A DNA stretch of 64,000 bases from Minisyncoccota bacterium (GCA_041658485.1 JBBAAE010000001.1:11889-75888); one strand, 5' to 3'. Counted from the stretch's first letter, positions 340-34,336 are shown. A program made the numbers and translations. The notes: generated from the letters alone by a model not told the origin.

Positions 340-1878
340 TCACAAATCCGTTCCTGAGTACGAAAGATTTAAACTCTTATTGCAAAGCGGAAAATCCGGC
401 ACGATGTTTCCTGGAGCAAGTTCGCCAAAGAGCGGCCAATTGCAAAACGAAGGGTCACGAATGACGAGTCGGTCAATGCGACCTTTTGCATCAAGGCGCA
501 CAAAATCCATAATTCCACCACGCCAGCTCTCCGCGAATCCGTACGCATCTCCAGTGCCATGAGAAACGGAAGCCTGCACCTTGCCTTCGGGAATCTTCGT
601 GAGCGCAAGACGGATTAATCTGAATGATTCAGTGAGTTCACGCACACGCACATTGAAGCGTGCAAAAACGTCGCCTGCTTTTTCTATAACCACAGACACT
701 TCCATATCTGCATATGCTCCATAGGGCATGTCACGACGAAGATCTATATCGATTCCAGAGGCGCGTGCACCAATACCTTGCGCGCCATATGCGAGCGCTG
801 CCTCTTTACTTAACACGCCCGTCGTTTCAAAACGTTCCTTAAGACCGTCTTTTGCATAGGCAATCTTTAACACCTCTCCTATGTCATGCTCTATACGTTT
901 AATTGTTTCTAGAATCTTCACTTCATCGTCTGCGGTTATATCGTGCGCACCGCCAAGAGTAATTGCACCACGGAGGAATCGGTGTCCAACAAGGTCGGCA
1001 TTAAGACGACGCATTTCTTCCACCATACGAAAACCTTGTGCTGCCATAAACGTAAATCCTGTACCCATACCACCCATGTTGCCTATATCAAAGATGTGAG
1101 CACACACACGCTCTAGCTCACTCCATATAACTCGCAAATACTCCGCACGCAGAGACACTGTCACATTAGAGATTTTTTCAATAGCTTGCACGAATGCGAG
1201 CGTGTGACCAACTACCATGTCGCCCGATACACGTTCAACAAACGGCAGTGCCTCTTCAGGAGTTTTCCCTTCAACAAGTTTTAGAACACCCTTATGTTTG
1301 AAAAAGAGTTTACCCTCAAGCGTAATAATGCGCTCCCCGCGTACGTTGAAACGAAAATGCCCTGGTTCAATGATACCTGCGTGAATTGGTCCTACTGGAA
1401 TCTCATACACCCCCTCACCTTCCACTTGGTGCATAGGGTACGGAACATTCGCATGAGCTAACTTTGTATTCCACTCAAAGTCTTTTCGCATAGGGTACGT
1501 GCCCTCAGGAATATTTTCATGATGCATGAGACGGCGTGGGTCAGGGTGTCCCACTGCCTCAATACCAAACTGATCCATAATTTGTCGCTCGTACCAGTTC
1601 GCTGCCATGATTGAGCGAGTCAAAGATGGATACTGTGGTTTTTCAGGTGAGAGATAGCTCTCAAGCGTAAGCAATTCTGTACCAACAGCAAAAACTGCAC
1701 GTATAGAAAACACATTACTTTTTTTACGCTCATCGAGTGCGTACATTAAAACCAAAGGCGATCCTTTCTCCACTATATCCTCTGCCGTAAGTGCAAAGTC
1801 CGACACTGGAACCTGCACTGTGCCAGAATCGCTCACATCTTCTAGACCTATTTCTTTTAAAAGTGTTTGGATATTCAT
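340..1878 (-). CDS. Fused NuoC-NuoD-like subunit / group-4 [NiFe]-hydrogenase large-subunit-like protein (HycE/HyfG-like) with incomplete Ni-ligand cysteines
   Basis: 512 aa. The N-terminal ~120 aa carry a NuoC signature (ERQIMDQFGIEAVGHPDPRRL). The rest is NuoD/large-subunit-like (GPIHAGIIEPGHFRF...GKLFFKHKG). The N-terminal RxCGxC position reads RVCAHI (one Cys only). The C-terminal DPCxxC position reads DPSFCN (one Cys only). Confidence 0.75.
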   Translation of the reverse strand: MNIQTLLKEIGLEDVSDSGTVQVPVSDFALTAEDIVEKGSPLVLMYALDERKKSNVFSIRAVFAVGTELLTLESYLSPEKPQYPSLTRSIMAANWYERQIMDQFGIEAVGHPDPRRLMHHENIPEGTYPMRKDFEWNTKLAHANVPYPMHQVEGEGVYEIPVGPIHAGIIEPGHFRFNVRGERIITLEGKLFFKHKGVLKLVEGKTPEEALPFVERVSGDMVVGHTLAFVQAIEKISNVTVSLRAEYLRVIWSELERVCAHIFDIGNMGGMGTGFTFMAAQGFRMVEEMRRLNADLVGHRFLRGAITLGGAHDITADDEVKILETIKRIEHDIGEVLKIAYAKDGLKERFETTGVLSKEAALAYGAQGIGARASGIDIDLRRDMPYGAYADMEVSVVIEKAGDVFARFNVRVRELTESFRLIRLALTKIPEGKVQASVSHGTGDAYGFAESWRGGIMDFVRLDAKGRIDRLVIRDPSFCNWPLFGELAPGNIVPDFPLCNKSLNLSYSGTDL

Positions 1879-1885
1879 ATGTATT

Positions 1886-3358
1886 TTATGAAATGGCCGT
1901 GATTATACGTTCAAGGATTGGCGATGCCATAGGTGTCATAAGAAACACACTAAATGCGACCAACAAAATAAGGTGAAGGGCTATAGCGGTATGCGACCAT
2001 CCCCATTTTTCACCCACCGTAACTTCACTCTTTGGTGAAACAGGTGCGGACGAAAAAAGAAACGGAATGATGAGGCGTATGAATCCTGCAAAAATAATAG
2101 CGAGTGCAAGAAGTACTATTGTTGCAAATATCGGATGTAGTACAACGCTTTGCGATATCAGAAGTAGTTCACTTCCAAAAAGTGGCGATGGTGGAATAGC
2201 GAGGAGCATCAAAATCAAGGTAAGAAACAGTGCCCCCGTGTACGGTAGTGTACGCATGACCTGCCCTACTCGATCAAACTTCGTACTCTTGAAACGAAGC
2301 AATATATTGCCTGCGCCAAAAAACAACGCGGACTTTGCGAGTGCATGTCCAACAATATGAATGACTGATGCAACAGCACCCACAGTCCCGAGTCCAGCAG
2401 AAAATACGATGAGTCCCATGTGCTCAATCGAAGAATACGCAAGGAGACGCTTATAGTCTGCCTGGAGCAAAATGAACGCCGCAGGAATAATGCATGAAAG
2501 CATGCCGAAAACCAAGAAGAGCTCACTCGTCCAAACACTTGAAGCAAGTGAACCGTCTACTAACACCCGAAAGCGCAATATTCCAAACAACGCAGCATTG
2601 AGAAGAATACCTGAGAGCATGCCTGAAATCGGTGAGGGAGCCCTACTGTGCGCATCGGGTAGCCATGCATGCATTGGCACCAAACCCACCTTCGTTCCAT
2701 ACCCAATAAGAATGAACACAAACGCTATTTGCATCAAGTGTGGTGGAAGCGAAGGAGCGACAGTAAGCAAATTCGTCCAACTGATTGCTCCGAGTCCATG
2801 CAAAAGACCAGAAGATGACGCTGCGTAGTAGGTGAGGAATAATCCAATGAGTCCAAGCGAAATTCCTGTTGAGCAAAGAATGAGATATTTCCATGCTGCT
2901 TCAAGTGAGCCTTTATGAGCATAGAACGCAACGAGGAGTGTTGTAGTCAGTGTTGTTGCTTCAAGCGCAATCCACATAAAACCAAGATTGTTTGAAACAA
3001 TAGTGAGAAGCATTGAGCACACAAAGAGACCAACAAAAAAGAAGTAACGACGCACTGCGGGCAATGCTATCTCCCCTGTTCGCACTTCTTCTCCTAGGTA
3101 GTGAATACTCGTTATGGTTGCTGTCCATTGAATGAACCCAATGAGAAGCACCATGAGTGCTGCAAATGTATCAAGATACCAGTACCCATTTTCAAATGAC
3201 GGTGCGCCAAAAAATAGCGGGATGGCAGTATAGAGACTTAACGCAAACACACCAGAACTTGCCAAAAATGCTGCGCCAAAAATAAACCGCAAACCACGCA
3301 TAAAAAATGGCACGGTGGCGAGAACTAAACATGAGACAAGTAGTAGTGAGATAGCCAT
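1886..3358 (-). CDS. NuoM/NuoN (Mrp antiporter)-like membrane subunit, HyfF/MbhH-like
   Basis: 490-aa polytopic membrane protein with the NuoL/M/N family motif WLPDAHSRAPSPISGMLSG. Confidence 0.7.
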   Translation of the reverse strand: MAISLLLVSCLVLATVPFFMRGLRFIFGAAFLASSGVFALSLYTAIPLFFGAPSFENGYWYLDTFAALMVLLIGFIQWTATITSIHYLGEEVRTGEIALPAVRRYFFFVGLFVCSMLLTIVSNNLGFMWIALEATTLTTTLLVAFYAHKGSLEAAWKYLILCSTGISLGLIGLFLTYYAASSSGLLHGLGAISWTNLLTVAPSLPPHLMQIAFVFILIGYGTKVGLVPMHAWLPDAHSRAPSPISGMLSGILLNAALFGILRFRVLVDGSLASSVWTSELFLVFGMLSCIIPAAFILLQADYKRLLAYSSIEHMGLIVFSAGLGTVGAVASVIHIVGHALAKSALFFGAGNILLRFKSTKFDRVGQVMRTLPYTGALFLTLILMLLAIPPSPLFGSELLLISQSVVLHPIFATIVLLALAIIFAGFIRLIIPFLFSSAPVSPKSEVTVGEKWGWSHTAIALHLILLVAFSVFLMTPMASPILERIITAIS

Positions 3359-3363
3359 AAAAA

Positions 3364-4011
3364 TTAATCAGTTAAGGTTCGCAAATCATCAGTCGCCACC
3401 GACGCATTCTCATCTTGCGCACGGTGCGTGAACACAGTGATAAGAATAAAAAATGCTAAGAGGTCAAAAAACGATCCAATTTCAAAAAGAAACGGCATGC
3501 CGTGCGTGAGCGCCAACCCGAATGTGAAGATGCCATTCTCCATAACAAAGAATCCAATTCCTTCCCCAAACATATCTTTTCGCGAAACCAACATAAGAAG
3601 GCCGACGAGCACAATGCCAAATGATGCAGCGAGCACAAAGTAATCAGCACCAACGGGCAATAACCCACGTGCTCCGATCAGAGCAACAATAGCCAGACAC
3701 GCCGCAACGAAAGAAAGTGTTGCGGGACGTGCATATGATTGCAGGCGCTCAGATGCTCCACTCACACGCGCCGCACGAAGCAAAAACGAAGGAATAAACC
3801 AAACTTTAATAAGAACAATAAGACCTGCAACAATAAAAAGTTGGAATTCCCCCGTTACAAATGCTGCAGCAATAGCGAGGAGTGCAAGAAGCGCTGACTG
3901 TACTCGAAATGCAGTTACCAAAGACCCCAAGCGCATGCGACTACTCATAAGAAACGCTAGGAAAAACATTCCTCCAGCAAACACTGTCATGGCAGTTGCG
4001 ATTGGTGTCAT
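3364..4011 (-). CDS. Small polytopic membrane subunit, HyfE-like (hydrogenase-4 component E-like)
   Basis: 215 aa, about six hydrophobic helices, sits between the NuoH-like and NuoN-like genes as hyfE does in hyf operons. Assigned by size and context only. Confidence 0.4.
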   Translation of the reverse strand: MTPIATAMTVFAGGMFFLAFLMSSRMRLGSLVTAFRVQSALLALLAIAAAFVTGEFQLFIVAGLIVLIKVWFIPSFLLRAARVSGASERLQSYARPATLSFVAACLAIVALIGARGLLPVGADYFVLAASFGIVLVGLLMLVSRKDMFGEGIGFFVMENGIFTFGLALTHGMPFLFEIGSFFDLLAFFILITVFTHRAQDENASVATDDLRTLTD

Positions 4012-4012
4012 A

Positions 4013-4993
4013 TTAGTGATAGAGGACGATTAACTCAACGGCAAGTCCGAGGAGCGCAATAAAGAATGCGAGCATCATATACTCCTGCATCCGATAAAAA
4101 CGCATCTTCACAATCACTGATTCTATAAAAGCAATTGCAAAAGCCCCGAGTGCAAGTTTTCCGAAAAATGCAATTAGTGCGACCCCAAGCCCAAAGAATG
4201 TAACCGGTGGAGCACTAATCCCAAATGGAATGAGGATACCCATACACACCGCCAAGAGCGCGGTTAACTTTATTGCTGATGCATACTCGAGCATTGCAAG
4301 ATATGTTCCTGAATACTCTAAGATCATAGCTTCGTGCACCATGGTGAGCTCAAGATGTGTCGCGGGATTATCTACTGGGTAGCGTGCATTTTCGGCAAGC
4401 AACACAAATAAAAATCCAATGAGCGTGACGATGACAGGAGGAACAGCGACCAACCACGGCAGTGATGTGAAGTGTCCAATAATGCCTCCCATGCCCCATG
4501 CGCCCGTAGCAAGTGCAAGGGTTGCAAGCGATACATAGAATGCTGGCTCAACGAGAGCAGCGAGCGTCATCTCACGGCTCGAACCCATGTTGCCAAACGT
4601 ACTTCCCGTATCCATACCTCCAAGCACCAAAAATACTGAACCAAGCGCCACTACTGCACCAAAAAGAAAAATATTATCGAGCGAACTTGGCACAATTCCA
4701 AAAAAGAGTGAGGGTACGACGAGAGCAAGGAAGAATGCACTTCCCAAGACCACAAATGGAACTACGCGAAATACCCATGAACTATGTTTTGTAATCGTCA
4801 TCTCTTTTCGGAGGAGCGAAAGCATTGAGACATAGGGCAAAAATATCGATGGTCCTTGGCGATTTTGAAAACGAGCTTTCAACGTGCGAACCATTCCCAC
4901 GACTAACGGTGCGGAAAGAAGTACCACGAGAGCTTGAAATGTAATAAGAAGGTACGTCATAGAGTAGTAGCGAGAGTGAGCACCAGTGCGCAA
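4013..4993 (-). CDS. NuoH/HycD-family membrane subunit
   Basis: KARFQNRQGPSIFLPYVSMLSLLRKE matches the NuoH/HycD signature (Q.R.GP....G.lQ..aD..KLl.KE). Polytopic. The true start is probably the internal Met (MTYLLITF), since the ORF overlaps the upstream gene by 37 nt. Confidence 0.7.
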   Translation of the reverse strand: MRTGAHSRYYSMTYLLITFQALVVLLSAPLVVGMVRTLKARFQNRQGPSIFLPYVSMLSLLRKEMTITKHSSWVFRVVPFVVLGSAFFLALVVPSLFFGIVPSSLDNIFLFGAVVALGSVFLVLGGMDTGSTFGNMGSSREMTLAALVEPAFYVSLATLALATGAWGMGGIIGHFTSLPWLVAVPPVIVTLIGFLFVLLAENARYPVDNPATHLELTMVHEAMILEYSGTYLAMLEYASAIKLTALLAVCMGILIPFGISAPPVTFFGLGVALIAFFGKLALGAFAIAFIESVIVKMRFYRMQEYMMLAFFIALLGLAVELIVLYH

Positions 4994-6963
4994 ATAACTA
5001 GAAGGAGGTACAACTGAATAACGCCATTCTGGAGTTTTTTAACCGCATGTGAAACAGCAAAGACCGCAATACCAATCGGGCGATAGAGCCAATACTCAAA
5101 AAAGGATTGAATGCTCCACACAAGACGCCGACGCACAATCCAGGGATTACTCATTGAAATAGGCTCAATGATTAATTCTTTCTCCGACATGAGAATTGAT
5201 TTGAAGAAAAATCTAATCGGCGCTGAAAAACCAGTTGCAGTGTACTGCATCCGAGGAGTTATAGGTTGCCCACAATCCCACGTATCCGTGATGCGGGCAG
5301 GATTTCTGTTAGAAAGAAATCGACGAAATACCATGAGAAGCACCCCAATAGAGAGAACACTCAAAAGCACCCACCATGCGTTCATAGAAGCTCCACCTAA
5401 AACTGCAACATCTCCAAAAAGTGTCATACCTTCCGTGAAGGCATTCGGCGCACTGAGGATCGGGAACAAAAACAATCCTGCAGTGATTGAAAGAAGTACG
5501 GAAGATAGTGGCGGAAGCCAAAGCAGTATCGGCATTGGGGACACCTGCTCTGCGTGGGTCGTGCGTGCTCGTCCAAGAAAGATTGCACTAAACATGCGGA
5601 CATATGCAAAAAGCGCGAGCCCGCCAACCAAAGCAAGGAGAGCGAGTATCAGTGCAAAACTTCCTCCAAAAAGAGCGGAAACAGTCATACCGCTTGCAAG
5701 CGTCTGAAAATATGTCCACTCACCAAAAAAGGTACCGAATGGGGGCAACGCAGCAGCTGCAAGAGAAAGTGCAAGAAATATTCCTGCAAAAATTGGCCAA
5801 CGCTGTGCAAGACCCCCTAGCTCGTCGAGATTTCGTGTATGTGTTTTTGATGCCACAGCACCAACTGCCATGAATAGCCCTGTCTTGAAAATAAAATGGT
5901 TCACGGTATGAAGAATTATGAAAAGAGCAATGGATGGTGCAATTGCGGAAACAGCACTATCTGGAGATCCGTGTACAAGGAGGTATATTCCAACAGCAGA
6001 AAAGATGAGCCCCATATTTTCTATACTGCTCCATGCAAGGACGCGCTTTGCGTCATTCTCAACTGCAGCGCGAAGCGCACCAAAAAATGCTGAGAGAAGG
6101 CCAATACCAATAACGAGGAATGCTGAGAAAGACGGAACAAATGGGAATAGTGCTACTCCTTGAATGAAACCAAAGAGTGCCACTTTAAGCATGACACCAG
6201 AGAGAAGCGCGGAGCTTCCACTTGGTGCTTGTGGGTGCGCATAGGGCAACCACTGATGAAGTGGCACTAAACCTGCTTTCGAACCAAACCCCGCGAAGAG
6301 AAGCACAAATGCAACAGAGATGGCGAGTGGTGTGGCACTAAGAGCAGAGAGTGCAACATCATGCCACGACGCAAAAAGATTACCTCCTGCAAGAAGAAGA
6401 AGCCCTGCTGCAATACAAGCAAACCCAATGTGAGTCATCACAAAGTAGAGCCATCCTGCACGGAGTGACTCATCACTCCTATCTGCGATAACCAAGAAAT
6501 ATGCGGAGACTGACATAATTTCCCAAGCCATCAGGAAAGTAAAAAGCGATGGGGAAAGGATCGTTGCTTGCATCCCTACAATAAAAAATGCCGAGGCAAC
6601 ATTGAGCGTTGGCAACACGTACACATCCTTATATGGTGGCAAGCTCTGAATCGCATAGAGCGAGGTTAGAAGGACGCCTCCGTACACCAGCATAAGGAAA
6701 AACACCTGCATTGAGTTAAGTGCAATGTTCACCAACCCAAAGAACGTAGCATTGAAAGACGCACTATTCCCTATTCCTAAAAGAGCAAAAAAATAACTGC
6801 CAGCAATCAGGCCAGCAAAACCCGACAAAATAAATATCGATTGCACCAGCGTGTTGTTCCAAGAAAAACGGCGGGTCAGAAGAGAAAGAACTACCCCTAC
6901 AAGTGGGAGCACGAATGCTACAGCAAAAAGACAGTCGATAGTGAAGGAGGACATAAGGTGCAT
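4957..6963 (-). CDS. NuoL/HyfB-like large antiporter-type membrane subunit
   Basis: 668 aa (E. coli HyfB is 672), polytopic, with the NuoL-family motif WLPYAHPQAPSGSSALLSG. Confidence 0.75.
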   Translation of the reverse strand: MHLMSSFTIDCLFAVAFVLPLVGVVLSLLTRRFSWNNTLVQSIFILSGFAGLIAGSYFFALLGIGNSASFNATFFGLVNIALNSMQVFFLMLVYGGVLLTSLYAIQSLPPYKDVYVLPTLNVASAFFIVGMQATILSPSLFTFLMAWEIMSVSAYFLVIADRSDESLRAGWLYFVMTHIGFACIAAGLLLLAGGNLFASWHDVALSALSATPLAISVAFVLLFAGFGSKAGLVPLHQWLPYAHPQAPSGSSALLSGVMLKVALFGFIQGVALFPFVPSFSAFLVIGIGLLSAFFGALRAAVENDAKRVLAWSSIENMGLIFSAVGIYLLVHGSPDSAVSAIAPSIALFIILHTVNHFIFKTGLFMAVGAVASKTHTRNLDELGGLAQRWPIFAGIFLALSLAAAALPPFGTFFGEWTYFQTLASGMTVSALFGGSFALILALLALVGGLALFAYVRMFSAIFLGRARTTHAEQVSPMPILLWLPPLSSVLLSITAGLFLFPILSAPNAFTEGMTLFGDVAVLGGASMNAWWVLLSVLSIGVLLMVFRRFLSNRNPARITDTWDCGQPITPRMQYTATGFSAPIRFFFKSILMSEKELIIEPISMSNPWIVRRRLVWSIQSFFEYWLYRPIGIAVFAVSHAVKKLQNGVIQLYLLLVICALVLTLATTL

Positions 6964-7481
6964 TACTTGCGGGTAGTGGTAACTATACTCAAGAGCCCTC
7001 TTAAGACATCCTCTGGTGTTGGCGGATCACCGGGAATTCGAGCATCAACTGGAATAACATTTTCTACTGCCCCCACTCCCGCATAGGAATCCTTCCAAAT
7101 TCCGCCCGTGCATGCTCCGTCACCGAGAGCAATAACAATTTTTGGCTCTGGCGTCATCTCGTAGGCGGTCTTCAGTGCATGCTCCATGTTGCGAGTAACA
7201 GGACCTGAAACAGTGATTACGTCAGCATGACGGGGAGATGCCACAAATGAGATTCCGAAACGCTCAATGTCGTACAAGGCGTTACCCAGAGCAGTTAGTT
7301 CATACTCTTCACCGTTCGTGGAACCCGCATCAACATGCCGTATGCGTAGCGTTCGACCTCCATATAAAGTATGAATAGCCCTCTTCAGATTCTCACCGAT
7401 CTCCTCAACGTGAGTTGGAATTTGAGGACATTTTTCAGTTCTCTTCCCTGTGGTAATTATTTTAGAAAGAAGACGCAACAT
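6963..7481 (-). CDS. NuoB / hydrogenase small-subunit-like protein with degenerate Fe-S ligands
   Basis: 172 aa with NuoB/HycG-like blocks. GSTNGEEYEL replaces GSCNGC..E (both Cys lost). IPGDPP replaces the conserved IPGCPP (Cys to Asp). Only ALGDGACTGG keeps one Cys, so 1 of 4 canonical cluster ligands remains. Confidence 0.75.
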   Translation of the reverse strand: MLRLLSKIITTGKRTEKCPQIPTHVEEIGENLKRAIHTLYGGRTLRIRHVDAGSTNGEEYELTALGNALYDIERFGISFVASPRHADVITVSGPVTRNMEHALKTAYEMTPEPKIVIALGDGACTGGIWKDSYAGVGAVENVIPVDARIPGDPPTPEDVLRGLLSIVTTTRK

Positions 7482-12105: not shown

Positions 12106-12717
12106 CTATTCCATTATTCCATCCAAATTCACGTCGTAGAGAATCTGTTCCTGCACAATACGATATTTCAAAATCTCTTCAGGCTTGAACCATACGGCAA
12201 TTTCACGTGATGCTTCTTCAGGACTTTCAGAACAATGAACGAGGTTTCTGACGGCACGGCTTTGTACAGAAGAATGGTCATACGAGTCCACAGTGTAGTC
12301 ACCGCGGATAGTACCCACATCCGATGTCTTTGGCTCTGTTGCACCCACAAGCTTCTTCACAACGGCTACTGATTCATTCCCTTCAACAACCATCATGAGT
12401 ACAGGACCTGCGGTCATGAATTTCACTATTGAGTCTATTATTTCTTTACCGTACCCGAGCGCATCCTTCTCTATTGGCAGGTTGTGCGTGGTGCGGTCAT
12501 TTAATATTCGAGTTCCTTTTTCAAGAAACCACTTCTCATCTTTATTGTAGTGACGCACAAGTTGGTCTTCCGTGGCAAGGCCAAATTTGAATGCAACAAA
12601 TTTCAACCCTGTTCTCTCTATCCGCTTCATTATCTCGCCGATAAGCGAACGCTGTACTGCGTCAGGCTTCAATATAATGAGCGTGCGCTCATTCTCAAAT
12701 TGTGCATTAGTGTTCAT
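12106..12717 (-). CDS. ndk: Nucleoside diphosphate kinase with N-terminal extension and internal insertion
   Basis: ERTLIILKPDAV, GPVLMMVVEG, TIRGDY and NLVHCSES motifs of NDK. 203 aa against a typical ~140. Confidence 0.85.
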   Translation of the reverse strand: MNTNAQFENERTLIILKPDAVQRSLIGEIMKRIERTGLKFVAFKFGLATEDQLVRHYNKDEKWFLEKGTRILNDRTTHNLPIEKDALGYGKEIIDSIVKFMTAGPVLMMVVEGNESVAVVKKLVGATEPKTSDVGTIRGDYTVDSYDHSSVQSRAVRNLVHCSESPEEASREIAVWFKPEEILKYRIVQEQILYDVNLDGIME

Positions 12718-12740: not shown

Positions 12741-12851
12741 GCTTTAGTGGCTAGGGTTTAGCGTTTAGGGGAGAACGAATTGAAAAATCCTGATCCCTAC
12801 GAATCCGACGAAGCATCGTCTAAACCCTGACCACTAAACGCTAGCCCCTAG
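12741..12851. repeat. Pair of inverted G-triplet repeat units (GGGTTTAGCGTTTAGGG family) flanking a 47-nt spacer
   Basis: Left unit ctttagtggctagggtttagcgtttagggg (12741-12770); right unit ctaaaccctgaccactaaacgctagcccctagc (12819-12851). Lies between the TraD-like stop and the ndk start. Confidence 0.6.
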
Positions 12852-15733
12852 CTCTTCTGGTTCTCTCGCATCTGATTATACTTCTGGTGAATATCAGCCT
12901 CCACAGCTTCGCGGGCTCGACCGTAGCGTTGATACGAAATCTGTTTCAATGCATCAATGTTCAAGAAGTCGCCAGGGGTAAACGGGATAGTCTCAATAGT
13001 AAAACCAGGGGTAGGCTTTCCTCCAGCAAGGAGCTTTAAATATGAATGGAAGTTGTCAATTTTTAGGAAGTCGGAAACCTCAAAGTTTGGAAATTGTTTC
13101 GCAATATACTCAGCATCATCGGGACCTACACGAAACACTGCCATCGTACCAACGTTACCAAAGACCGCTTCTTTAATTTTTGGAAGGAGCTGAGAAACAT
13201 ACTGGTGCGCCATAGTCATAGAGAGACGGAATTTTCGTGCTTCTGAGAGAATTGTTGAAATAGTATCGGTCGTGATGTTCTGGAACTCGTCAATGTAGAG
13301 ATAGAAGTTTGGAGGATTCAAATGCAAATACTCAGTACGTGCAAGTGCAGTCATCATTATCTTTCCAACAATCACAAGTCCAATCAAGTTTGCATTTACG
13401 TCCCCCAGTCGGCCTTTGGACAAGTTCACAAGAAGAATCTTCTTGTTGTCCATAATATCCTTGAAATTAAAGGCCGATCGTTGCTGACCTATGATGGGGC
13501 GCATAATTTCATTTGCGATGAAGATATCGAATTTTGAGGTGATGTACGGAACCACGTTACGCAAATCTCCTTCTCCCCGCACATTTTCTGCAATGTCTTC
13601 CCAGAAGTGCGTTACCACGGGATTTTTACAGCGCGACAATTTCAATGCGCGGAACTCATCGTCAGCGAGTACTCGCGAAATATCCATGAGTGTCGAGCCA
13701 GTATCAGGATCTTCCAAAACAAGCATCGTGGCATTACGAAAATACTGCTCGAAAATAGGGCCGAACGCTTCTGGTACATCACCATATAATTTCTTGAAAA
13801 TCTTAAACATCTCGTCCACCACGAATGTTTTTTGTTCAGGGAAGCGTGGATCATACTCAAGCATATTGAGCCCCATTGGCCTTGCGGTATATGCAGGATC
13901 AAAATAAATGAGGTCGTCAATGCGATCTTTAGGAATACGGGAAAGAATCTCCAATACATCCACACCGTGTGGGTCAATAAAACACACCCCTTCCCCATTC
14001 TCAATGTCCTGAATAATCATATTCTTCAGGAAGTTCGTCTTACCAGTACCCGTTTGTCCAATGGTATACATGTGGCGCAGGCGATCATCTGGAGTGAAAT
14101 GAATTGGCGTTGCAATATTTGAGTAACGATTAATGCCGATGACAATGCCTTTCTCAGGAAGCCCTGGTGGTGCAGGAGCAAGCTTAGCGCTTGCAGTTTT
14201 GGCTTCACGAGATGCTGTACCTCCTGCAATAGTGAGATGAAAAATAGTTGAGAGCTCTGCCAAATTCATCGGCATGAGTGGAATCTTATGCATCAAAGGT
14301 GTTGGCGCAGCCTTGCGTGTCCATTCAAGCCACAGCTGATAGAAAAATCCTTCGTGTGCTTGACGGTCAAACATACGGAAAATGAACAAGCGGAGAAACT
14401 CCCGCAACTCCTTTCTACCTTTTATATGCTTAAAACGAAGGCGATTCGCTTTTGCATCTTCATACTGCCCAAAGGTATTTTCAAGTTCCGTCAAAATTGC
14501 CATTGCCCTCTCTTTGGTGCGAGCAGAGGCAACAATGCGTAAATTCACTCCCACAATGACACTCTTGAGCTTTTTTGACACTGCGTCAGCCGCAAAAGAA
14601 TCAATATTCTTACTATCATCCTTCTTTTTTTCTTCAGAGCTTTCCAAAAAACTAGTGAAGCCTTTGTTCAATCCCTGAAAAAATCGACGCATTGGTGAGT
14701 AATGCTCCATGTACATATTTTTTCGAAATATGTCATTCGCAGAACCCTTACCTTTATTAAGTTCGTCTAAAACATAGCGGATACGCTTAGAGTGATAGTC
14801 TCCTGCTGGTGCAACGGTAATTTGAAGCGCAGCCCCTTCACCTTCTTTAGTGATTTTTGAAAGTGCTGCGAGCGTCACATTCATAGGGTCGTGACTAAAC
14901 TCTTCTGATGTCTTTAAAGGAATTGGTGGCGGGCGCTGATAGTAAGCAGACGCTGCAACAGTCACACCAAATTGGTTAAAAAGATTGTAGTCATCTTTTT
15001 TTTCAACAATACGTGCGCGAGGAAACATGGCAAAAATCTGCTTTTCAAACGTTTCCCGTTTTGCTCGAGGAACTGACAAATAAAAGACCGCTTCCTCTTT
15101 AGTGTGCGAAACAGCAATTTCCATTGTGAAATGCTGAAGATGAATCTTTTTGCGCTTGTGCCAATCCTTCAGGAAAATTGTATCGGGGAGAGCAACAAAA
15201 GGAATCATGCTCAAATAAAACTGCTCCATCTGCATGCAAACATCCTTAAGAGACCCCCCTGGTTTCCCTGGCGCAGCTTCAGGTACGGCTATATCCAAGA
15301 GAACAAAATCAAGAGCTACAGCGAGTGGGTCATTAGCACTCAGCCCTGGGATTGGATGACCAGCTGTCCGGTATTGCACAAGCAGGCGATGGAAATCATC
15401 TTCAAGGTGGGGATTATCAATGCGATCGAGCTCCCTCATGACAGCCTTGAATCCTTGGGTATGCAAAATACCCAACAACTCCTCCATGTCTTTGTCGTTC
15501 GAGTCAGGTGTAAGTTCAAGAATGATGCCTTGCTTCTGCTCTTGCTCTACCCCCTCTGGTGCCTCCGAAAGTGTAGGGAGAACAGACGCTTCGACAGGTA
15601 AGGCCGGATCCCCTCGATGTCCCCTTCCCCCTCCACCCGAACGCGCGGTCTCACGCAACTTCGTCAGTTGATGCTCAGGCGAAAGTTTCGCTGCTTTTGT
15701 ATCAATTCCTTTATTAGGATTAAATCCTGGCAT
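12848..15733 (-). CDS. TraD/VirD4/TrwB-like (FtsK-HerA superfamily) P-loop ATPase with a large N-terminal domain of unknown function
   Basis: 961 aa. Walker A YTIGQTGTGKTNFLKNM, Walker B LYIDEFQNI, then ARKFRLSMTMAHQYVSQL typical of type IV secretion coupling / DNA-translocation ATPases. The N-terminal ~500 aa have no recognisable similarity and no N-terminal transmembrane helices. Confidence 0.6.
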   Translation of the reverse strand: MPGFNPNKGIDTKAAKLSPEHQLTKLRETARSGGGGRGHRGDPALPVEASVLPTLSEAPEGVEQEQKQGIILELTPDSNDKDMEELLGILHTQGFKAVMRELDRIDNPHLEDDFHRLLVQYRTAGHPIPGLSANDPLAVALDFVLLDIAVPEAAPGKPGGSLKDVCMQMEQFYLSMIPFVALPDTIFLKDWHKRKKIHLQHFTMEIAVSHTKEEAVFYLSVPRAKRETFEKQIFAMFPRARIVEKKDDYNLFNQFGVTVAASAYYQRPPPIPLKTSEEFSHDPMNVTLAALSKITKEGEGAALQITVAPAGDYHSKRIRYVLDELNKGKGSANDIFRKNMYMEHYSPMRRFFQGLNKGFTSFLESSEEKKKDDSKNIDSFAADAVSKKLKSVIVGVNLRIVASARTKERAMAILTELENTFGQYEDAKANRLRFKHIKGRKELREFLRLFIFRMFDRQAHEGFFYQLWLEWTRKAAPTPLMHKIPLMPMNLAELSTIFHLTIAGGTASREAKTASAKLAPAPPGLPEKGIVIGINRYSNIATPIHFTPDDRLRHMYTIGQTGTGKTNFLKNMIIQDIENGEGVCFIDPHGVDVLEILSRIPKDRIDDLIYFDPAYTARPMGLNMLEYDPRFPEQKTFVVDEMFKIFKKLYGDVPEAFGPIFEQYFRNATMLVLEDPDTGSTLMDISRVLADDEFRALKLSRCKNPVVTHFWEDIAENVRGEGDLRNVVPYITSKFDIFIANEIMRPIIGQQRSAFNFKDIMDNKKILLVNLSKGRLGDVNANLIGLVIVGKIMMTALARTEYLHLNPPNFYLYIDEFQNITTDTISTILSEARKFRLSMTMAHQYVSQLLPKIKEAVFGNVGTMAVFRVGPDDAEYIAKQFPNFEVSDFLKIDNFHSYLKLLAGGKPTPGFTIETIPFTPGDFLNIDALKQISYQRYGRAREAVEADIHQKYNQMRENQKS

Positions 15734-15933
15734 GTCTCTCAGTATAACTCCTCTCTCGTACTGTTTTTGGCGAATCGCTCAGTGTCTCCTGCGGACACCT
15801 TGCTCGTCCTCAACTGGATTCAGCTTCTCGCTGACCAAGCAATCCAGTTTGCGGATGTTCGCCAAAAACAGCACTCGCTCTGTAAGAAAAAAGTCGTGAC
15901 TCTAAAGGCAGTGCCGATATGCACACCGAAACA

Positions 15934-16485
15934 CTAAGGGGCAGTGAGTCCTACATACTTCAGTATCTCAAATGCACCACGAGTAATCGATGAACCATCT
16001 GCCCCTACACTGAGTAATGCTTTTTTCAAAACTAACCTACCTTGTTCGTCAAAGACTCCAATTTCAGTGCCTGTAGTCTCAAACCAACATGCTATCCCGG
16101 CTTTTTCGCCCTCGAAAAGCGGCCACTCTGGAACACCTATTTCTGCACATGCACCCGCATACGCTCCGACGAAATATTCTTTACGATTCAGAGAAACTGC
16201 TACGTTCATAAGTGGGGCTCCGGAAGAATTTTTACTACCCGAATCACTGACAATCCAGTTGTATACAGGGGTTTCACACTGAGCAAATTCACAGGCGGGC
16301 CCCATCCGTCCAACAGTGCTCCCGTCTGGACAGATTTTCGCTTCTTCAGTACATACACTCGTATGTGGCACAACAGTAGTGGGAATACGGGCAAAAAAGA
16401 ACCAAGCACTGATAACCCCAACACATATAATTACACCAAAGAAAGCCCACTGAAACTTTGCCGACATCATACTAGTGTAACTCAA
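15934..16485 (-). CDS. Hypothetical membrane-anchored Cys-containing extracytoplasmic protein
   Basis: 183 aa, N-terminal hydrophobic helix (FFGVIICVGVISAWFFFA), eight Cys in the predicted extracytoplasmic part. No family recognised. Immediately upstream of the TraD-like gene. Confidence 0.5.
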   Translation of the reverse strand: MSYTSMMSAKFQWAFFGVIICVGVISAWFFFARIPTTVVPHTSVCTEEAKICPDGSTVGRMGPACEFAQCETPVYNWIVSDSGSKNSSGAPLMNVAVSLNRKEYFVGAYAGACAEIGVPEWPLFEGEKAGIACWFETTGTEIGVFDEQGRLVLKKALLSVGADGSSITRGAFEILKYVGLTAP

Positions 16486-16493
16486 ATAGAGAA

Positions 16494-16524
16494 TACAAAA
16501 AAAGGCGCCGACGGCGCCTTTTAG
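16494..16524. terminator. Bidirectional rho-independent terminator (GGCGCCgacGGCGCC)
   Basis: aaaaaaaGGCGCCGACGGCGCCtttt. Confidence 0.65.
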
Positions 16525-16707
16525 GTAGGTTATTTTTTCTTATCTTTCTTTGGTTTCTTTTTATCTTTACGATGTGTTTCTCCTTTTGCCATAGAGTATG
16601 CGATTTAGCGAAATCGTGTCGGGCACTCGATTCAGTAGAATCGTGTCGTGTACTATCCTTTGGAACACGACTTGAAGCCCGACCCTTTAAATAATGTTTT
16701 TATACTA

Positions 16708-16897: not shown

Positions 16898-17662
16898 CTA
16901 AAGCTCTGTAAGAATTCGATGACCATTCTCGGTAATAAGAATAGTGTGTTCGAAGTGTGCGGCGCGCGAACCATCTTTTGTGACAAACGTATAACCATCT
17001 TTTAAAAGTTTCACGCGGGGGGTGCCTTCTGTAAACATAGGCTCAATTGCAATAACAAGTCCTGGTGTTAATGGTGCCCCAGTCCCAGCATCCCCAACAT
17101 TTGGCACATACGGCTCTTCATGGACAGAGTTCCCCACTCCGTGTCCTCCAAGTTCAAAGACAATACCATACCCGCGTTTGACGCCCACCATTTCAATAGC
17201 AGAACTTATGTCTCCTATATACCCACCTGGTTTCGCCATTTTAATACCCGCCATGAGAGCTTCCTTCGTTGCATCCAATAGTGCCTTTGCGCCCATGTCC
17301 CCCTTCCCTGCAATAACCGTGAGTGCGCTATCTACCAGTAAGCCTTGATGTGTGAGCACACAATCAAGTCCAACAATATCGCCTTCTTTAATAATGCTAG
17401 GGTTTTCATTTGGGATACCGTGCACCACCTCATCGTTAATTGAAATACAGATGGTCGCAGGGTACGGGCGTGTTGCTCCCCGCGGAGTATATCCAACCAA
17501 CGACGGCACATCACCGAAGTCTCGAATCATTTTCTCCGCAAGAGCATTGAGAGTGTCGGTTGATACTCCCGGGACTACCGCCTTACCAACAGCCGTTAAT
17601 ACTGCTGCGAGATGTTTCCCGCCTTCCCGAAGAATTGGAATATCTTTTTTTGTTGCAATCAT
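16898..17662 (-). CDS. map: Methionine aminopeptidase type I
   Basis: 254 aa with the metal-binding blocks of MetAP (DIVGLDCV, HGIPNE, FVTKDGSRAAHFEHT). Confidence 0.9.
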   Translation of the reverse strand: MIATKKDIPILREGGKHLAAVLTAVGKAVVPGVSTDTLNALAEKMIRDFGDVPSLVGYTPRGATRPYPATICISINDEVVHGIPNENPSIIKEGDIVGLDCVLTHQGLLVDSALTVIAGKGDMGAKALLDATKEALMAGIKMAKPGGYIGDISSAIEMVGVKRGYGIVFELGGHGVGNSVHEEPYVPNVGDAGTGAPLTPGLVIAIEPMFTEGTPRVKLLKDGYTFVTKDGSRAAHFEHTILITENGHRILTEL

Positions 17663-17671
17663 TCTGTGGAG

Positions 17672-18253
17672 CTATTTCAAAACCTCTGCTACTTTTTTCA
17701 TTACTTCTTCATGCACTTCCGTAGGTGTTTGTTCACCGTTTATATCGATACATTTGCCCAATTGTTGGAAATATTCAATAGCTGGTTTCGTAAGACGATT
17801 ATACTCAGCGAGGCGCATACGGATAACAGACTCATCCTTGTCAGTTGAGTCACGGCCACGGAGAAGTGAGCGTTTTACTACTTCATCTTCACTGACATCC
17901 AAATTCAATACGGTGTATGAACGTCCCAGCCATGTACACACTTCATCAATGACTTTTGCTTGTTCAACATCACGTCCCGATCCTTCAAATATTGCGCCCT
18001 TTTCTGGAGCTAGCTTAAACAAAAACTCCTCGAGCATGTAATTAGCAACCCACGAAGGCATGAGAAGACCTTTTTCATAATCTGCCTTAATGCGATTACC
18101 TAACAGTGAACCTGATGCAACAATTTCACGAAACTTTCCTCCCGTACTAAACACGGTATACCCAAGCTTCTCTGCAAGTTGAACGCACTGCGTTTCTTTC
18201 CCAGAAGCAATACGCCCCACGAAGAAAAATAAATGTTTCTGCTGTGTATCCAT
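17672..18253 (-). CDS. adk: Adenylate kinase
   Basis: 193 aa with a P-loop GRIASGKETQ, LMPSWVANYMLEEF and GSGRDVEQA, in the secY-adk-map position of the spc operon. Confidence 0.8.
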   Translation of the reverse strand: MDTQQKHLFFFVGRIASGKETQCVQLAEKLGYTVFSTGGKFREIVASGSLLGNRIKADYEKGLLMPSWVANYMLEEFLFKLAPEKGAIFEGSGRDVEQAKVIDEVCTWLGRSYTVLNLDVSEDEVVKRSLLRGRDSTDKDESVIRMRLAEYNRLTKPAIEYFQQLGKCIDINGEQTPTEVHEEVMKKVAEVLK

Positions 18254-18264
18254 GAATACCTATA

Positions 18265-18837
18265 TTAACCTGCAATAAGAGATTCTACGACTTCTGCAAA
18301 ACGTTTTTTAGCAGCATCCACTTCTCCCGAATGGTTTTCAATAACAAAATCAGCCTCGGACATAAAATTCATCTCATCTTGATATCGTTCTTTTCTTTTC
18401 CCTAGTTCCGTTTCCGATATTGGTGCACGAGCCCGAATCCGAGCCTCCATTTCACTCCATGAACCAGCATTCACGAAAATAACAGCTAATTCTTCTTTAG
18501 GGATTTTCTTTTGCAATTGTCGAACTCCTTGTACTTCAAGTTCTTTGAGTGCAGTCATACCTCCGTCTAGCAGTGGCATAACTTCGGATGCAAGCGTGCC
18601 GTAAAAATGCCCACCATATTCTGCCCACTCTAAAAAATCACCACTCTCGATGCGGGACTGAAACTCCTCGCGAGAAAGAAAATAATAGTGCTCGCCATGC
18701 TTCTCGTTCGCACGCATGGAACGAGTTGTTGAAGACTTTGGATATTGAAGCGCTGGGAATAGAGGGCGGATATGATTAATAAGCGTTCCTTTTCCAGAAC
18801 CAGATGGACCAATAACGAGTATGAATTTCCCTTTCAT
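18265..18837 (-). CDS. gmk: Guanylate kinase
   Basis: GPSGSGKGTL...SSTTRSMRANEKHGEHYYFLSREEF...FLEWAEYGGHFYGT. Confidence 0.85.
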   Translation of the reverse strand: MKGKFILVIGPSGSGKGTLINHIRPLFPALQYPKSSTTRSMRANEKHGEHYYFLSREEFQSRIESGDFLEWAEYGGHFYGTLASEVMPLLDGGMTALKELEVQGVRQLQKKIPKEELAVIFVNAGSWSEMEARIRARAPISETELGKRKERYQDEMNFMSEADFVIENHSGEVDAAKKRFAEVVESLIAG

Positions 18838-27587: not shown

Positions 27588-28286
27588 TTACAAAATAATA
27601 ATGCCTTCAAGCTCCTCAGCTAAAAGTTTTTTGTTGGTTGTTTTAACAAAATCAGCGTAATTACTTTTTGCTGTTATGGCAAACTGCCCTGTAATGATTT
27701 CGGGCACTATGAGTCCTCCCCATCGGTTTGCATCAGTAAAATCTTGGAGCGACGACCAAGGATATTCAAATTCCTTTCCTGACCATTCTCGTGTATCACG
27801 AGGGTTTCTATGAATGTAGGCGGATGTGTAGAGAAGTTGAGAGTCTGTCTTTACATGCACCGCTTTATACGGACCCTGAAATACATGCCCAGTGGCGTCA
27901 TATTTAACATTATAATATTTTGTATATCCATCAGACACACGTTGCATATAGCGTGCGATTCCACCTTCAATAGTTTCTTTGACCAGTAAGTGAAAATGGT
28001 TGGACATCAGACAAAAACAAACCACTTCTACAAAACGACTCTCGATAATGGACTCGATATCTTCGTTAGGAACAGAAAAACCAATATCCGGAACAAAACT
28101 TTCCGTAATGCGATGTATATTTTTAAACTCGTGCGGGGATTGGAGAAACAGCACATTAAAAAGGAATCGCCGCCAATCGTTTTTTTCTTTAAAAACCGTT
28201 TGTCGGTGAGCTCCGCGATTAAAAATATGGTAGTACTCCCCTGGAGCAATTCCTTCTCGCGATTTTAGTAATACTTTAGGCATCAA
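27588..28286 (-). CDS. IS200/IS605-family (REP-associated tyrosine transposase, RAYT-like) Y1 transposase
   Basis: 232 aa. EYYHIFNRGAHRQTVF opening block, CLMSNHFHLLVKE (HuH motif), GHVFQGPYKAVHV with the catalytic Tyr region. This is the typical Y1_Tnp / RAYT layout. Confidence 0.75.
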   Translation of the reverse strand: MMPKVLLKSREGIAPGEYYHIFNRGAHRQTVFKEKNDWRRFLFNVLFLQSPHEFKNIHRITESFVPDIGFSVPNEDIESIIESRFVEVVCFCLMSNHFHLLVKETIEGGIARYMQRVSDGYTKYYNVKYDATGHVFQGPYKAVHVKTDSQLLYTSAYIHRNPRDTREWSGKEFEYPWSSLQDFTDANRWGGLIVPEIITGQFAITAKSNYADFVKTTNKKLLAEELEGIIIL

Positions 28287-28300
28287 TGTAGACTAACACG

Positions 28301-28334
28301 CCCCTTGTGCAACCTCCGGAGGTTGCACAAGGGG
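28301..28334. repeat. Second copy of the palindrome, extended: CCCCTTGTGCAACCTCCGGAGGTTGCACAAGGGG
   Basis: Read in sequence, 15 nt upstream of the transposase start codon. It has the same 24-nt core as the copy at 27539-27566. Confidence 0.85.
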
Positions 28335-28360
28335 CTCGAAACCAAAAATATTTGCCGAGA

Positions 28361-31300: not shown

Positions 31301-31597
31301 ATCCATGTCGCCAACAGTTGCGGTCTGATAGGCACTTTGCACTGTATAACTATCTCCACCATACACTGCATAAAAGGCCGCGGCACCTCCACTGCCCGGG
31401 GGGAATGGATTAGTTACTACAGTGTAGGAGTATTCCCATATCGAACCACTACACCCTCCGACACCACCTCCTCCACCATCCATGTTTGGTGCAGCGTATA
31501 CCGATTGAGGAATTATACTGAGTACCGCAACTACAAAGACAGCAACCACAAAAAAGCTTTTAAAAGTGCGGGCAACAAACTGGCGGAAGGCTATCAT
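28361..31597 (-). CDS. Giant secreted Thr/Ser-rich repeat-domain protein (surface or S-layer-like candidate)
   Basis: 1078 aa. Signal peptide MIAFRQFVARTFKSFFVVAVFVVAVLSIIPQSVYA, followed by poly-Gly. At least six copies of a ~75-90-aa module (xTPTSLxxGxSSxxTWSSTNATSCTGTNFSTxxATxGSxTVxPSQTTSYxVxCTGAGGS). A Cys-rich central module (GTWQYSESDISDFACP...CKVNT...YSC). PKD-like GSYTYSWSGTD modules. Many N-x-S/T sequons. C-terminal tail ...PRFDEF. Confidence 0.8.
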   Translation of the reverse strand: MIAFRQFVARTFKSFFVVAVFVVAVLSIIPQSVYAAPNMDGGGGGVGGCSGSIWEYSYTVVTNPFPPGSGGAAAFYAVYGGDSYTVQSAYQTATVGDMDEGCIEEPTAPYVGIIATPASITSGGSSLLTWSSDYVTSCTGTNFSTSGATSGSLIVSPSSSVAYLITCTDGAQTISSSATVTVSAPVVAPTASLSANPTSFILGASSVITWSSTNATSCTGTNFSTASATAGSVTVVPSQTTSYLVSCTGAGGSASASRTVTVNLPAAPTATLSANPTSLVAGASSVITWSSTNATSCTGTNFSTASATAGSVTVIPSQTTSYLVSCTGAGGSAAASQTVTVSSIPSPTVSLSATPTSLNSGSSATLTWSSTNAVSCVGSGFETGGNTSGSISTGALSASTNYSITCTGASAVSSGTWQYSESDISDFACPLTDPNKAYSSVPTCPSNPTGKTCSIPTCKVNTISACSINTDIYSCVGASPAVTPQTAFATANVQVNSTSSGALSGSCSVSPTSVYTGSPVTWTASAWGGAGSYTYSWSGTDSLSGAVASISKTYTTVGTKTASITITSPSGATSVTLQGEKHCSGGTKVGSYGTTEDGVGFTLNTSSMAGVCAGITPAGGCCSVDVRETLNSAGQPVNTYYRYEAYSNASLASKTSTSGSTTRHNYLAGMATASNASVTASCSNSVVVGVSLADLTTGSLSPASVTAGVNTTFTAGVTNRGGAATPVFGSRMYVCLTSDSACLNNYLTKSDSIWSRIFSFFINFAEANTSIKIALSRISIVAGGSGTQTGSYTFPSPGSYQMRFCADTPLNEVNESNELDNCSVWTSLTVNPGAVTASCSPSPSTGYVGDSLTWTVTPSGGVGSYTYVWSGTDGLLGTGVTVSKTYATAGTKSASVIVTSGAGSVTATCAAGTIQNTPTVLITVTPNVIIKGVTSPRIDWTSSYATSCTGTNFPTGSATVGSVTVSPPVTTTYGITCTNGTRSASSSATVTVNPADIALSISPAVTVRQGDPATVSWGVVGTPDSCSISGPGLSSTAFSGAQSVIINQQSTYTMNCLTGGVPSSKSVTIGVTPRFDEF
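30590..31130. repeat. Near-identical in-frame tandem DNA repeats (~270 bp, about 90% identity) inside the giant gene
   Basis: Two successive ~90-aa modules (...SLSANPTSFILGASSVITWSSTNATSCTGTNFSTASATAGSVTVVPSQTTSYLVSCTGAGGSASASRTVTV / ...TLSANPTSLVAGASSVITWSSTNATSCTGTNFSTASATAGSVTVIPSQTTSYLVSCTGAGGSAAASQTVTV) encoded by nearly identical DNA. Confidence 0.6.
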
Positions 31598-31654
31598 TCC
31601 ATCTATTGTACAGGGAATTCATACTTGCTGTTAAGAGAAATTTGTGAGGGGTGG

Positions 31655-34325: not shown

Positions 34326-34336
34326 ATCATTACATG

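Follow-up and report, generated by a model that had tools for sequence, protein, structure and literature searches.

Homologues of VirD4-type type IV coupling proteins (T4CPs) occur almost throughout the Patescibacteria, with 5,713 copies in 2,918 of 3,035 genomes (96%), of which 148 lie near virB4 (Quinonero-Coronel et al., 2025, PMC12102498). Chromosomal type IV secretion systems (T4SSs) that lack a relaxase are widespread in the phylum, relaxases being almost absent from it, and the authors of that survey raised the possibility of exaptation (PMC12102498). The accessible part of its text handles the homologues as generic T4CPs and makes no mention of a DUF8128 or VirB4-like N-terminal domain, of an absence of transmembrane (TM) segments, or of synteny with map and ndk; the DUF8128 family was presumably among the homologues counted. 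Two further systems are relevant here. In the conjugation operon of plasmid pIP501, the VirD4-like ATPase TraJ lacks an anchor of its own and is thought to be recruited to the membrane through another protein, TraI, that is encoded immediately upstream (PMC4981023). The early protein gp32 of phage SPP1 is dispensable for the phage and has no TM segment; its similarity to TrwB, VirB4, and FtsK was noted, and a translocon with the small membrane proteins gp31.1 and gp31.2 was proposed (PMC6316719). Here, an ATPase gene located between map and ndk is examined in a stretch of 64,000 nucleotides from a Minisyncoccota bacterium (GCA_041658485.1, JBBAAE010000001.1:11889-75888; hereafter the window). 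An initial annotation of the window had described the gene product as an orphan TraD/VirD4-like ATPase with an unassignable N-terminal region of about 500 amino acids (aa), co-encoded with a Cys-rich membrane protein and possibly associated with DNA uptake. The protein is a cytoplasmic P-loop translocase that probably forms a ring and belongs to the VirB4/VirD4 branch of the FtsK-HerA superfamily, and its architecture is unlike that of either classical type IV secretion ATPase.

The C-terminal 440 aa are a TrwB/TraD-type nucleotide-binding domain (NBD) with an inserted all-alpha domain. The Walker A, Walker B, and AHQ motifs cited in the initial annotation are exact (Table 1), and its assignment of this half to coupling-type ATPases of the FtsK-HerA kind was borne out by hidden Markov model (HMM) and fold comparisons, which both point to TraD/VirD4/TrwB. 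Across 69 sequences, G559, Q560, T561, G562, G564, and K565 of Walker A, D815, E816, F817, and N819 of Walker B, and E831, R833, K834, A842, H843, and Q844 further downstream are invariant. R833 is a candidate arginine finger and Q844 the sensor Gln, and the invariant catalytic residues (K565, D815/E816, R833, and Q844) are as would be expected of an active enzyme. The Pfam models TrwB_AAD_bind (22.8 bits, cut-off 20.5) and TraG-D_C (23.0 bits, cut-off 22.0) match partially and marginally, and the best NCBIfam matches are TraD/VirD4 models, all far under their cut-offs (SXT_TraD, 55 versus 366 bits). Foldseek aligned 417-461 columns (~450) to TrwB soluble chains of 412-427 residues (1e9s, 1gki, and 1gl7) with E ~5e-12 and TMt of 0.60-0.67, and hhalign gave a 92% probability for TrwB. 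With TraD of F the motifs are collinear (Walker A followed by DEF, SEARKF, and AHQ here and by DEL, PEARKF, and GIQS in TraD), yet the hhalign probability is 6%. When the family profile was compared with PDB sequences, only TrwB and DotL were matched, at ~20 bits and around the P-loop.

Other branches of the superfamily were also compared. A Pfam scan of the ATPase gave no match to the VirB4 ATPase models AAA_10 and P-loop_TraG, the NCBIfam models VirB4_plasma (16.9 bits) and CD1110 (11.6 bits) fell far below their cut-offs and below the T4CP scores, and hhalign against TrwK and TraC of F matched the P-loop and nothing further. The FtsK_SpoIIIE model reached 14.4 bits against a cut-off of 24, over the P-loop only; of the FtsK traits, no TM segment was predicted and no winged-helix C-terminal domain is present in the AlphaFold2 (AF2) model. 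For HerA, DUF87 scored 19.2 bits (cut-off 23.2) and the NCBIfam HerA model 12.3 bits (cut-off 970). HerA structures (4d2i and 9x1m) are among the Foldseek neighbours at E ~5e-11; the N-terminal domain of the present protein has a VirB4-like predicted fold and no HAS-barrel, and no NurA-like gene was found in the neighbouring gene tables of relatives at 81-48% identity.

The region ahead of the motor, regarded in the initial annotation as novel and unassignable, is instead DUF8128 (PF26449) with a predicted fold like that of the VirB4 N-terminal domain, and only aa 1-74 are disordered. The domain was assigned via the precomputed annotation of nearly all full-length homologues, including one of 98% identity (P0001), and the UniRef entry of one relative reads 'DUF8128 domain-containing protein'; literature searches for PF26449 or DUF8128 gave no papers. 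In a full-length Foldseek search the top matches were whole TrwK/VirB4 chains of the R388 T4SS (E ~1e-15, ~930 columns), ahead of TrwB. On the strength of the AF2 model, the ~385-aa DUF8128 domain is predicted to have the VirB4 N-terminal-domain fold. In that model (predicted local distance difference test, pLDDT, 77; predicted template modelling score, pTM, 0.65), an alpha/beta region spans aa 136-500, a RecA-like domain, split by eight helices at aa 633-762, covers aa 530-915, and a helical tail follows. Attempts to establish homology with the VirB4 N-terminal domain at the sequence level failed with single sequences, with a whole-alignment profile (in which only the P-loop matched), and with trimmed profiles.

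Mean identity to the window protein differs widely among segments, from 0.36 in the disordered N-terminal tail (the lowest), through 0.47 in the N-domain, 0.61 in the three-helix bundle, and 0.71-0.76 in the NBD, to 0.82 in the all-alpha domain (the highest). The tail contains one conserved short helix at aa 19-31, with the consensus SPExQxxKLRExxRSGGxGGG. The N-terminal region (aa 76-520) is basic (pI 9.2) and the all-alpha domain acidic (pI 4.8). No TM segment was predicted: the sole 19-residue Kyte-Doolittle window above 1.6 is at aa 779 (1.71), inside the ATPase core, aa 1-520 contain no hydrophobic window, and the AF2 model consists of soluble domains. The initial annotation was therefore right that an N-terminal membrane anchor is missing.

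The protein joins a VirB4-type N-domain to a T4CP-type motor and fails defining features of both families. Like the T4CPs TrwB (R388), TraD (F), and VirD4, it has the motif order Walker A, DE(F/L) Walker B, (S/P)EARK(F), and sensor Gln as well as an all-alpha insertion in the NBD, and T4CPs are the best HMM and fold matches of its C-terminal half. Unlike them, it carries a cytoplasmic region of ~450 aa in place of the two N-terminal TM helices, scores far under the curated T4CP cut-offs, has the all-alpha domain as its most conserved segment, and is encoded by a chromosomal core gene with no relaxase or mating-pair genes nearby. Among the window open reading frames (ORFs) scanned (most, not all, of those of at least 150 aa), no T4SS component or relaxase was found, in agreement with the initial annotation. 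Relaxase and mating-pair genes were likewise missing from the gene tables of the 81, 64, 60, and 48% and the 79-90% relatives and from the neighbour clusters of the 31 non-syntenic loci. Unlike VirB4 (TrwK of R388), its N-domain has no sequence similarity to the VirB4 family and its ATPase half scores as a T4CP; further, the gene is not beside virB2, virB3, virB6, or virB8, either among the window ORFs scanned or at the loci examined. The lack of an own anchor is shared with pIP501 TraJ, whose membrane partner is encoded directly upstream, whereas the membrane protein encoded upstream of the present gene is not conserved. TraJ is not known to have a VirB4-like N-domain.

A search of 5.8 billion proteins recovered hundreds of full-length orthologues (916-990 aa, 46-98% identity, 93-100% coverage); all those with a named source are Patescibacteria, and most are annotated with PF26449 in the N-terminal half. 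End-to-end alignment of over 100 orthologues, each 916-990 aa long, shows that the protein is not a frameshifted fusion of two genes, a prospect raised in the initial annotation, and an artefact of frameshift or gene fusion is ruled out. Matches to aa 76-520 formed 611 clusters at 50% identity (among 1.84 billion representatives), and the complete proteins among them are all 790-1120 aa long, with the domain core mapping to ~aa 200-458. The Wolfebacteria version is shorter (~790 aa), and relatives of ~800 aa align only from about aa 200 onward. When one genome per species was scanned, carriers amounted to at least 595 species genomes; the species-locus counts given here rest on 80 loci kept from these, and all 80 are from Patescibacteria (Kaiser-, Nomura-, Taylor-, and Zambryskibacteria and other Paceibacteria). 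Since the family is uncharacterised, no known set of partners encoded elsewhere could be assigned to it, and the initial annotation is not displaced on that account.

The gene order of the window recurs in the gene tables of relatives at 81, 64, 60, and 48% identity, as rplO-secY-(gmk/cmk)-adk-map-[variable slot]-ATPase gene-ndk-(DUF2238)-beta-CASP-<rplT-rpmI-infC, and the map-ATPase-ndk order, a conserved neighbourhood of the kind that the initial annotation proposed to look for, holds from 47 to 90% identity. Among the 80 species loci, map lies upstream within 2.5 kb at 31 of 62 informative loci, and ndk lies downstream within 1.5 kb at 33 of 71 (within 250 nt at 26); all eight members of the window's own clade are syntenic. 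In the gene tables of the 81, 64, 60, and 48% and the 79-90% relatives, ndk is present without exception. Clustering of the neighbours of the 31 non-syntenic loci revealed nothing in common beyond scattered housekeeping genes. Deep paralogy as the source of the non-syntenic copies was ruled out, syntenic and relocated copies being interleaved in identity clustering. This interleaving, together with the absence of common neighbours around relocated copies, indicates a single orthologous family with lineage-specific relocations. The ATPase gene is a single-copy, vertically inherited core gene of the ultra-small Paceibacteria with its ancestral site between map and ndk. The label 'orphan' thus marks no special trait, as Patescibacteria normally encode their T4CP homologues at a distance from virB4 and this gene is a syntenic core gene. 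No relatives were found on 2.9 million viral contigs in a scan limited to two motif patterns. It should be noted that one Nomurabacteria metagenome-assembled genome (CALRBL01) contains two family copies that are 63% identical (L020 and L060), just one of them beside ndk; these are either recent paralogues or a bin mixture.

A sister family is found in phages. The phrog_5156 profile aligns aa 200-960 with positions 74-816 of 824 (E 2e-72, 245 bits), and tblastn located the ATPase half in 47 phage records, including those of Bacillus phage G (gp156, 825 aa), SPP1 (gene 32; gp32, 836 aa), GBK2, and SP-10. The HMM of the N-domain from the Candidate Phyla Radiation (CPR) matches residues 47-283 of gp156 at 36.6 bits and gp32 weakly. 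The phage proteins share the TM-less two-domain architecture; unlike the DUF8128 ATPase, they are ~830 aa long and have neither the disordered tail nor the helical bundle, and identity is 20-25%. Their genes are in early regions, beside genes for small membrane proteins (SPP1) or VirB6/VirB4-type genes (phage G). In phage G, a jumbo phage, gp156 comes after gp153, a TrbL/VirB6-family membrane protein (44 bits), and gp155, a P-loop_TraG/AAA_10 VirB4-type ATPase, and this position makes it the second ATPase of a small T4SS-like cluster, which offers the strongest contextual support for a function of the family together with T4SS-type membrane parts. The record annotation of gp156 as an 'MsbA-like permease' is apparently wrong. 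In SPP1 (L008, NC_004166.2), genes 31.1 (2046-2426), 31.2 (2439-2756), and 32 (2753-5263) follow one another in an order reminiscent of virB2-virB3-virB4; a comparison of gp31.1 with TrbC/VirB2 pilin was sub-threshold (13 bits, E 0.1).

A model is tentatively favoured here whose likelihood is put at about even or a little less. In it, the C-terminal half would form a TrwB-like hexamer that threads a polymer substrate at the expense of ATP, and the VirB4-like N-domain would stand in for the membrane anchor by docking the ring on the cytoplasmic tails of VirB3/VirB6/VirB8-type subunits. The docking target would be the chromosomal relaxase-less T4SS that is encoded elsewhere in the genome of most Patescibacteria, so that the protein would act as an exapted coupling or energising ATPase of the phylum and not as a conjugation protein. 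In structural work on R388, the VirB4 N-domain reportedly makes such contacts with the cytoplasmic tails of membrane subunits. Precedent for the recruitment of a TM-less coupling protein by a separate membrane protein is provided by TraJ and TraI of pIP501 (PMC4981023).

Several points weigh against this model, for which every functional statement on the CPR side is inferred. No T4SS gene adjoins the ATPase gene in the window or at the loci examined, which covered the gene tables of the 81, 64, 60, and 48% and the 79-90% relatives and the neighbour clusters of the 31 non-syntenic loci; the flanks of the remaining syntenic loci were probed for housekeeping markers only. The likeness to the VirB4 N-terminal domain is one of fold: the Pfam model CagE_TrbE_VirB (PF03135) was unmatched at E<=1, and hhalign of trimmed DUF8128 and VirB4 N-domain profiles, the latter built from 19 sequences of the proteobacterial MPF_T type only, gave a collinear and non-significant alignment (probability 0.2%, E 0.32). 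T4CP homologues occur in 2,918 Patescibacteria genomes versus 2,417 for VirB4, and the one t4cp gene tested, that of Southlakia, which may or may not be of the DUF8128 type, is non-essential while the T4SS is essential (PMC12102498). Additionally, the most conserved segment of the protein is the acidic all-alpha domain. The housekeeping location of the gene may point to a cellular role independent of the T4SS.

The gene upstream of the ATPase gene was also examined, given the partnership proposed in the initial annotation. Its product is indeed a co-oriented protein with a single TM helix (~aa 13-33), yet the eight extracytoplasmic Cys claimed for it are six, since of its seven Cys (21, 45, 52, 65, 70, 113, and 133) C21 sits inside the TM helix. 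A 100% identical database twin of 177 aa (P0277) begins at an internal Met, and the true start is probably M7, at 16467. About 11 full-length homologues exist in total, and the ORF is present at 0 of the 80 species loci. One homologue (45% identity) occurs in the 81% relative, where a CAP-domain gene lies between it and the ATPase gene, and another in the 90% relative. The slot between map and the ATPase gene holds a DUF6496 gene and the Cys-rich ORF in the 90% relative, a GFA gene on the opposite strand in the 85% relative, and PAP2 plus CAP genes, or CAP alone, at 79-81% identity; it is empty at 60-64% identity. A conserved partnership was accordingly rejected, the ORF being absent from all 80 loci and the slot content differing among close relatives. 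With only ~6-12 residues facing the cytoplasm, the protein could hardly recruit a cytoplasmic ATPase, and such a role is implausible; it is an unrelated, lineage-specific surface protein. Nor does the term 'co-encoded' describe the pair well, with a structured gap of 200 nt between the two genes. Further database matches share with the Cys-rich protein a 4-Cys motif and nothing else. Copies of this motif (aa ~45-70; C-T-x-E-A-K-x-C-P-D-G-S-x-V-G-R-x-G-P-x-C-E-F-x-x-C) that are 60-86% identical are found in many Patescibacteria proteins of 130-320 aa with no other relationship to one another, some of them with Gmad2 or DUF333 domains. The motif looks like a mobile extracellular mini-domain.

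The leader between the two genes is a candidate translational control element. It folds into a long nested stem with a minimum free energy of -76.2 kcal/mol (z -4.64; 0 of 200 shuffles as stable), in the outer helix of which a CU-rich tract is paired with the GAGAGGAG ribosome-binding site. Partial conservation was seen in the 85% relative only (L092, ~2800-3000), with the same nested inverted repeats and base changes on both arms as judged by eye, and in the 90% relative a gap of just 59 nt takes its place. The leader has no Rfam match, and a search of the whole window likewise returned zero Rfam matches at gathering thresholds.

Other explanations of the ATPase have to be set beside docking on a T4SS. 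The chief rival is a T4SS-independent housekeeping DNA translocase, FtsK/HerA-like and active in the cytoplasm on the cell's own DNA in segregation, resolution, or repair, in which the N-domain would serve oligomerisation or regulation; it is considered unlikely. The vertically inherited core-genome site beside the spc/secY/adk/map operon and ndk, the very high conservation of the motor and the all-alpha domain, and the HerA structures among the fold neighbours all speak for it, as does the larger number of genomes with T4CP homologues than with VirB4 (PMC12102498). It has to contend, however, with the lack of an FtsK gamma domain, of a HerA HAS-barrel, and of a nearby NurA-like partner, with FtsK_SpoIIIE and DUF87 scores under their cut-offs, and with an acidic all-alpha domain that would be unexpected for a DNA clamp; moreover, the nearest sequence and fold relatives are secretion ATPases and the phage G homologue sits among VirB6-/VirB4-type genes.

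A role as a DNA-uptake motor that cooperates with ComEC and type IV pili, perhaps through recruitment by the Cys-rich protein encoded upstream, is quite improbable. The ComEC, RecJ, and type IV pilus genes cited in the initial annotation (the last as PilB and PilC) were all located in the same 64-kb window, but their association with the ATPase gene is one of co-residence at more than 30 kb, and in relatives none of them occurs within the +/-6-8 kb around the gene. The setting of the gene among nucleotide kinases (gmk, adk, and ndk) in an organism that must salvage nucleotides would fit uptake; in Southlakia, however, a comEC mutation left viability unaffected, so that uptake is not an essential nucleotide route there (PMC12857230). 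Similarly, the use of an upstream membrane protein by the TM-less coupling protein of pIP501 (PMC4981023) offers a parallel for recruitment, against which stand the absence of the Cys-rich ORF from 80 of 80 species loci, the other genes found in its place in close relatives, and the near lack of a cytoplasmic part in its product. Finally, it is highly improbable that the gene is a domesticated phage or mobile-element gene (a leftover resembling SPP1 gp32) or a defence NTPase of the HerA/MADS type. While phrog_5156 matches end to end, Bacillus phages carry homologues, and the PADLOC models give a mad8 match at E 4e-11 and weak HerA matches, the gene is single-copy, syntenic, and vertically inherited, has no flanking integrase or defence partners, is unremarkable in composition by eye, and has no relatives on viral contigs in the two-pattern scan. 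The PADLOC matches are limited to the generic P-loop core, and membership of a defence system was rejected for that reason. Of the initial annotation, then, a coupling-type ATPase without an anchor and without conjugation genes nearby stands, whereas the orphan status, the novel N-domain, the Cys-rich partner, and the link to uptake do not.

The coordinates of the features are collected in Table 1. A strong terminator immediately upstream of the Cys-rich ORF separates it from the map unit, and a tiny Lys-rich ORF (MAKGETHRKDKKKPKKDKKK; ~16525..16590, minus strand) lies between map and this terminator, at a position that is filled by a 62-aa DUF6496 gene in the 90% relative. An extra nucleotide-monophosphate kinase gene is inserted between secY and adk (gmk here, region 17672..18837, minus strand; cmk in L004, region 6115-7218) and, with ndk downstream, makes up a nucleotide-salvage kinase cluster around the ATPase gene. 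The window otherwise consists of housekeeping genes, including those for an NADH-dehydrogenase-like complex, infC-rpmI-rplT, beta-CASP RNase, GNAT, ndk, map, adk, gmk, secY, the spc/S10 ribosomal operons, tuf, fusA, comEC, recJ, pgk, tpi, pilB/pilC, and nusA, and its regional GC and composition profile, as judged by eye, is unremarkable. The NADH-dehydrogenase or group-4-hydrogenase-like membrane complex (340..7481, minus strand), encountered here in a CPR genome, has a fused 30-kDa+49-kDa subunit, two Proton_antipo_M subunits, NADHdh, and Oxidored_q6, and the same genes flank the ATPase locus in the 81% relative (L001). The S10/spc ribosomal-protein operon contains, directly after rplB (35075..35938), a block (27588..34999, minus strand) with genes for two very large surface proteins (CARDB+PKD; 1078 and 825 aa) and for an IS200-like Y1 transposase, together with an unassigned 220-aa ORF.

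Table 1. Features of the ATPase locus, its product, and related loci (window positions unless another record is named).
Feature	Position	Strand	Basis or remark
DUF8128/T4CP-like ATPase gene, 961 aa, stop codon included	12848..15733	-	ORF, orthologues, AF2 model
Disordered Gly/Arg/Pro-rich N-terminal tail, aa 1-75	15509..15733	-	pLDDT <50 for aa 1-17 and 30-74
Three-helix bundle, aa 76-135, ~950-aa subfamily only	15329..15508	-	Helices 80-93, 95-105, 108-123
DUF8128 core, aa 136-520, alpha/beta, predicted VirB4 N-terminal-domain fold	14174..15328	-	
T4CP (TrwB/TraD)-type NBD, aa 521-961, with all-alpha insert and C-terminal helical tail	12851..14173	-	
Walker A GQTGTGKT, aa 559-566	14036..14059	-	Exact motif
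Eight-helix all-alpha insertion, aa 633-762, at the TrwB all-alpha domain (AAD) position	13448..13837	-	AF2 model
Walker B YIDEFQN, aa 813-819	13277..13297	-	Exact motif
SEARK (aa 830-834) through AHQ (aa 842-844)	13202..13246	-	Invariant residues
Structured leader, 200 nt, between small ORF and ATPase gene	15734..15933	-	RNA folding
Small single-TM surface protein with 4-Cys motif, 183-aa ORF	15934..16485	-	Neighbour, no conserved partner
Intrinsic terminator ending the map transcription unit, directly upstream of small ORF	16500..16522	-	10-bp stem, 6 GC pairs, T-run
map (methionine aminopeptidase), conserved upstream synteny anchor	16898..17662	-	Peptidase_M24, 133 bits
ndk (nucleoside diphosphate kinase), conserved downstream neighbour	12106..12717	-	NDK, 137 bits
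ComEC	47915..49324		In window
RecJ	50906..52570		In window
PilC	57348..58562		In window
PilB	58627..60363		In window
Phage G cluster (L007, JN638751.1 87747-97120)	gp153 26-985; gp155 1448-3097; gp156 3113-5590		

What was already known is that the family is catalogued as a domain of unknown function and, in general terms, that the T4CP homologues of Patescibacteria are encoded far from virB4. The VirB4-like fold of DUF8128, the hybrid architecture, the fixed position between map and ndk, and the link to phrog_5156, gp32, and gp156 were not found in the literature searched. The protein is no new kind of machine, and its function is inferred. Patescibacteria nonetheless account for much of bacterial diversity, epibiotic growth in the one tractable lineage requires the chromosomal T4SS, and the coupling-type ATPases of the phylum are encoded away from the T4SS and have no assigned role. 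A VirB4-like N-domain that replaces the anchor, combined with a fixed core position, leads to a testable docking hypothesis and to a family definition for phylogenetic profiling, and an uncharacterised CPR protein is linked to SPP1 gp32, which is genetically tractable in Bacillus subtilis. The protein may also be a structural intermediate that bears on whether VirB4 and VirD4 had a common origin, as has long been discussed. A more far-reaching proposition, that these proteins constitute a third, previously unrecognised architectural class of type IV secretion ATPase in which a VirB4 N-domain is fused to an anchor-less coupling-protein motor, is doubtful and on balance unlikely. If it were true, the class would be old enough to count among the core genes of Paceibacteria and to have a sister lineage among the phages of Firmicutes, and could be an evolutionary intermediate between VirB4 and VirD4, and its role in the CPR would be a non-conjugative one tied to the epibiotic lifestyle, for example in energising the traffic of substrates through the chromosomal T4SS.

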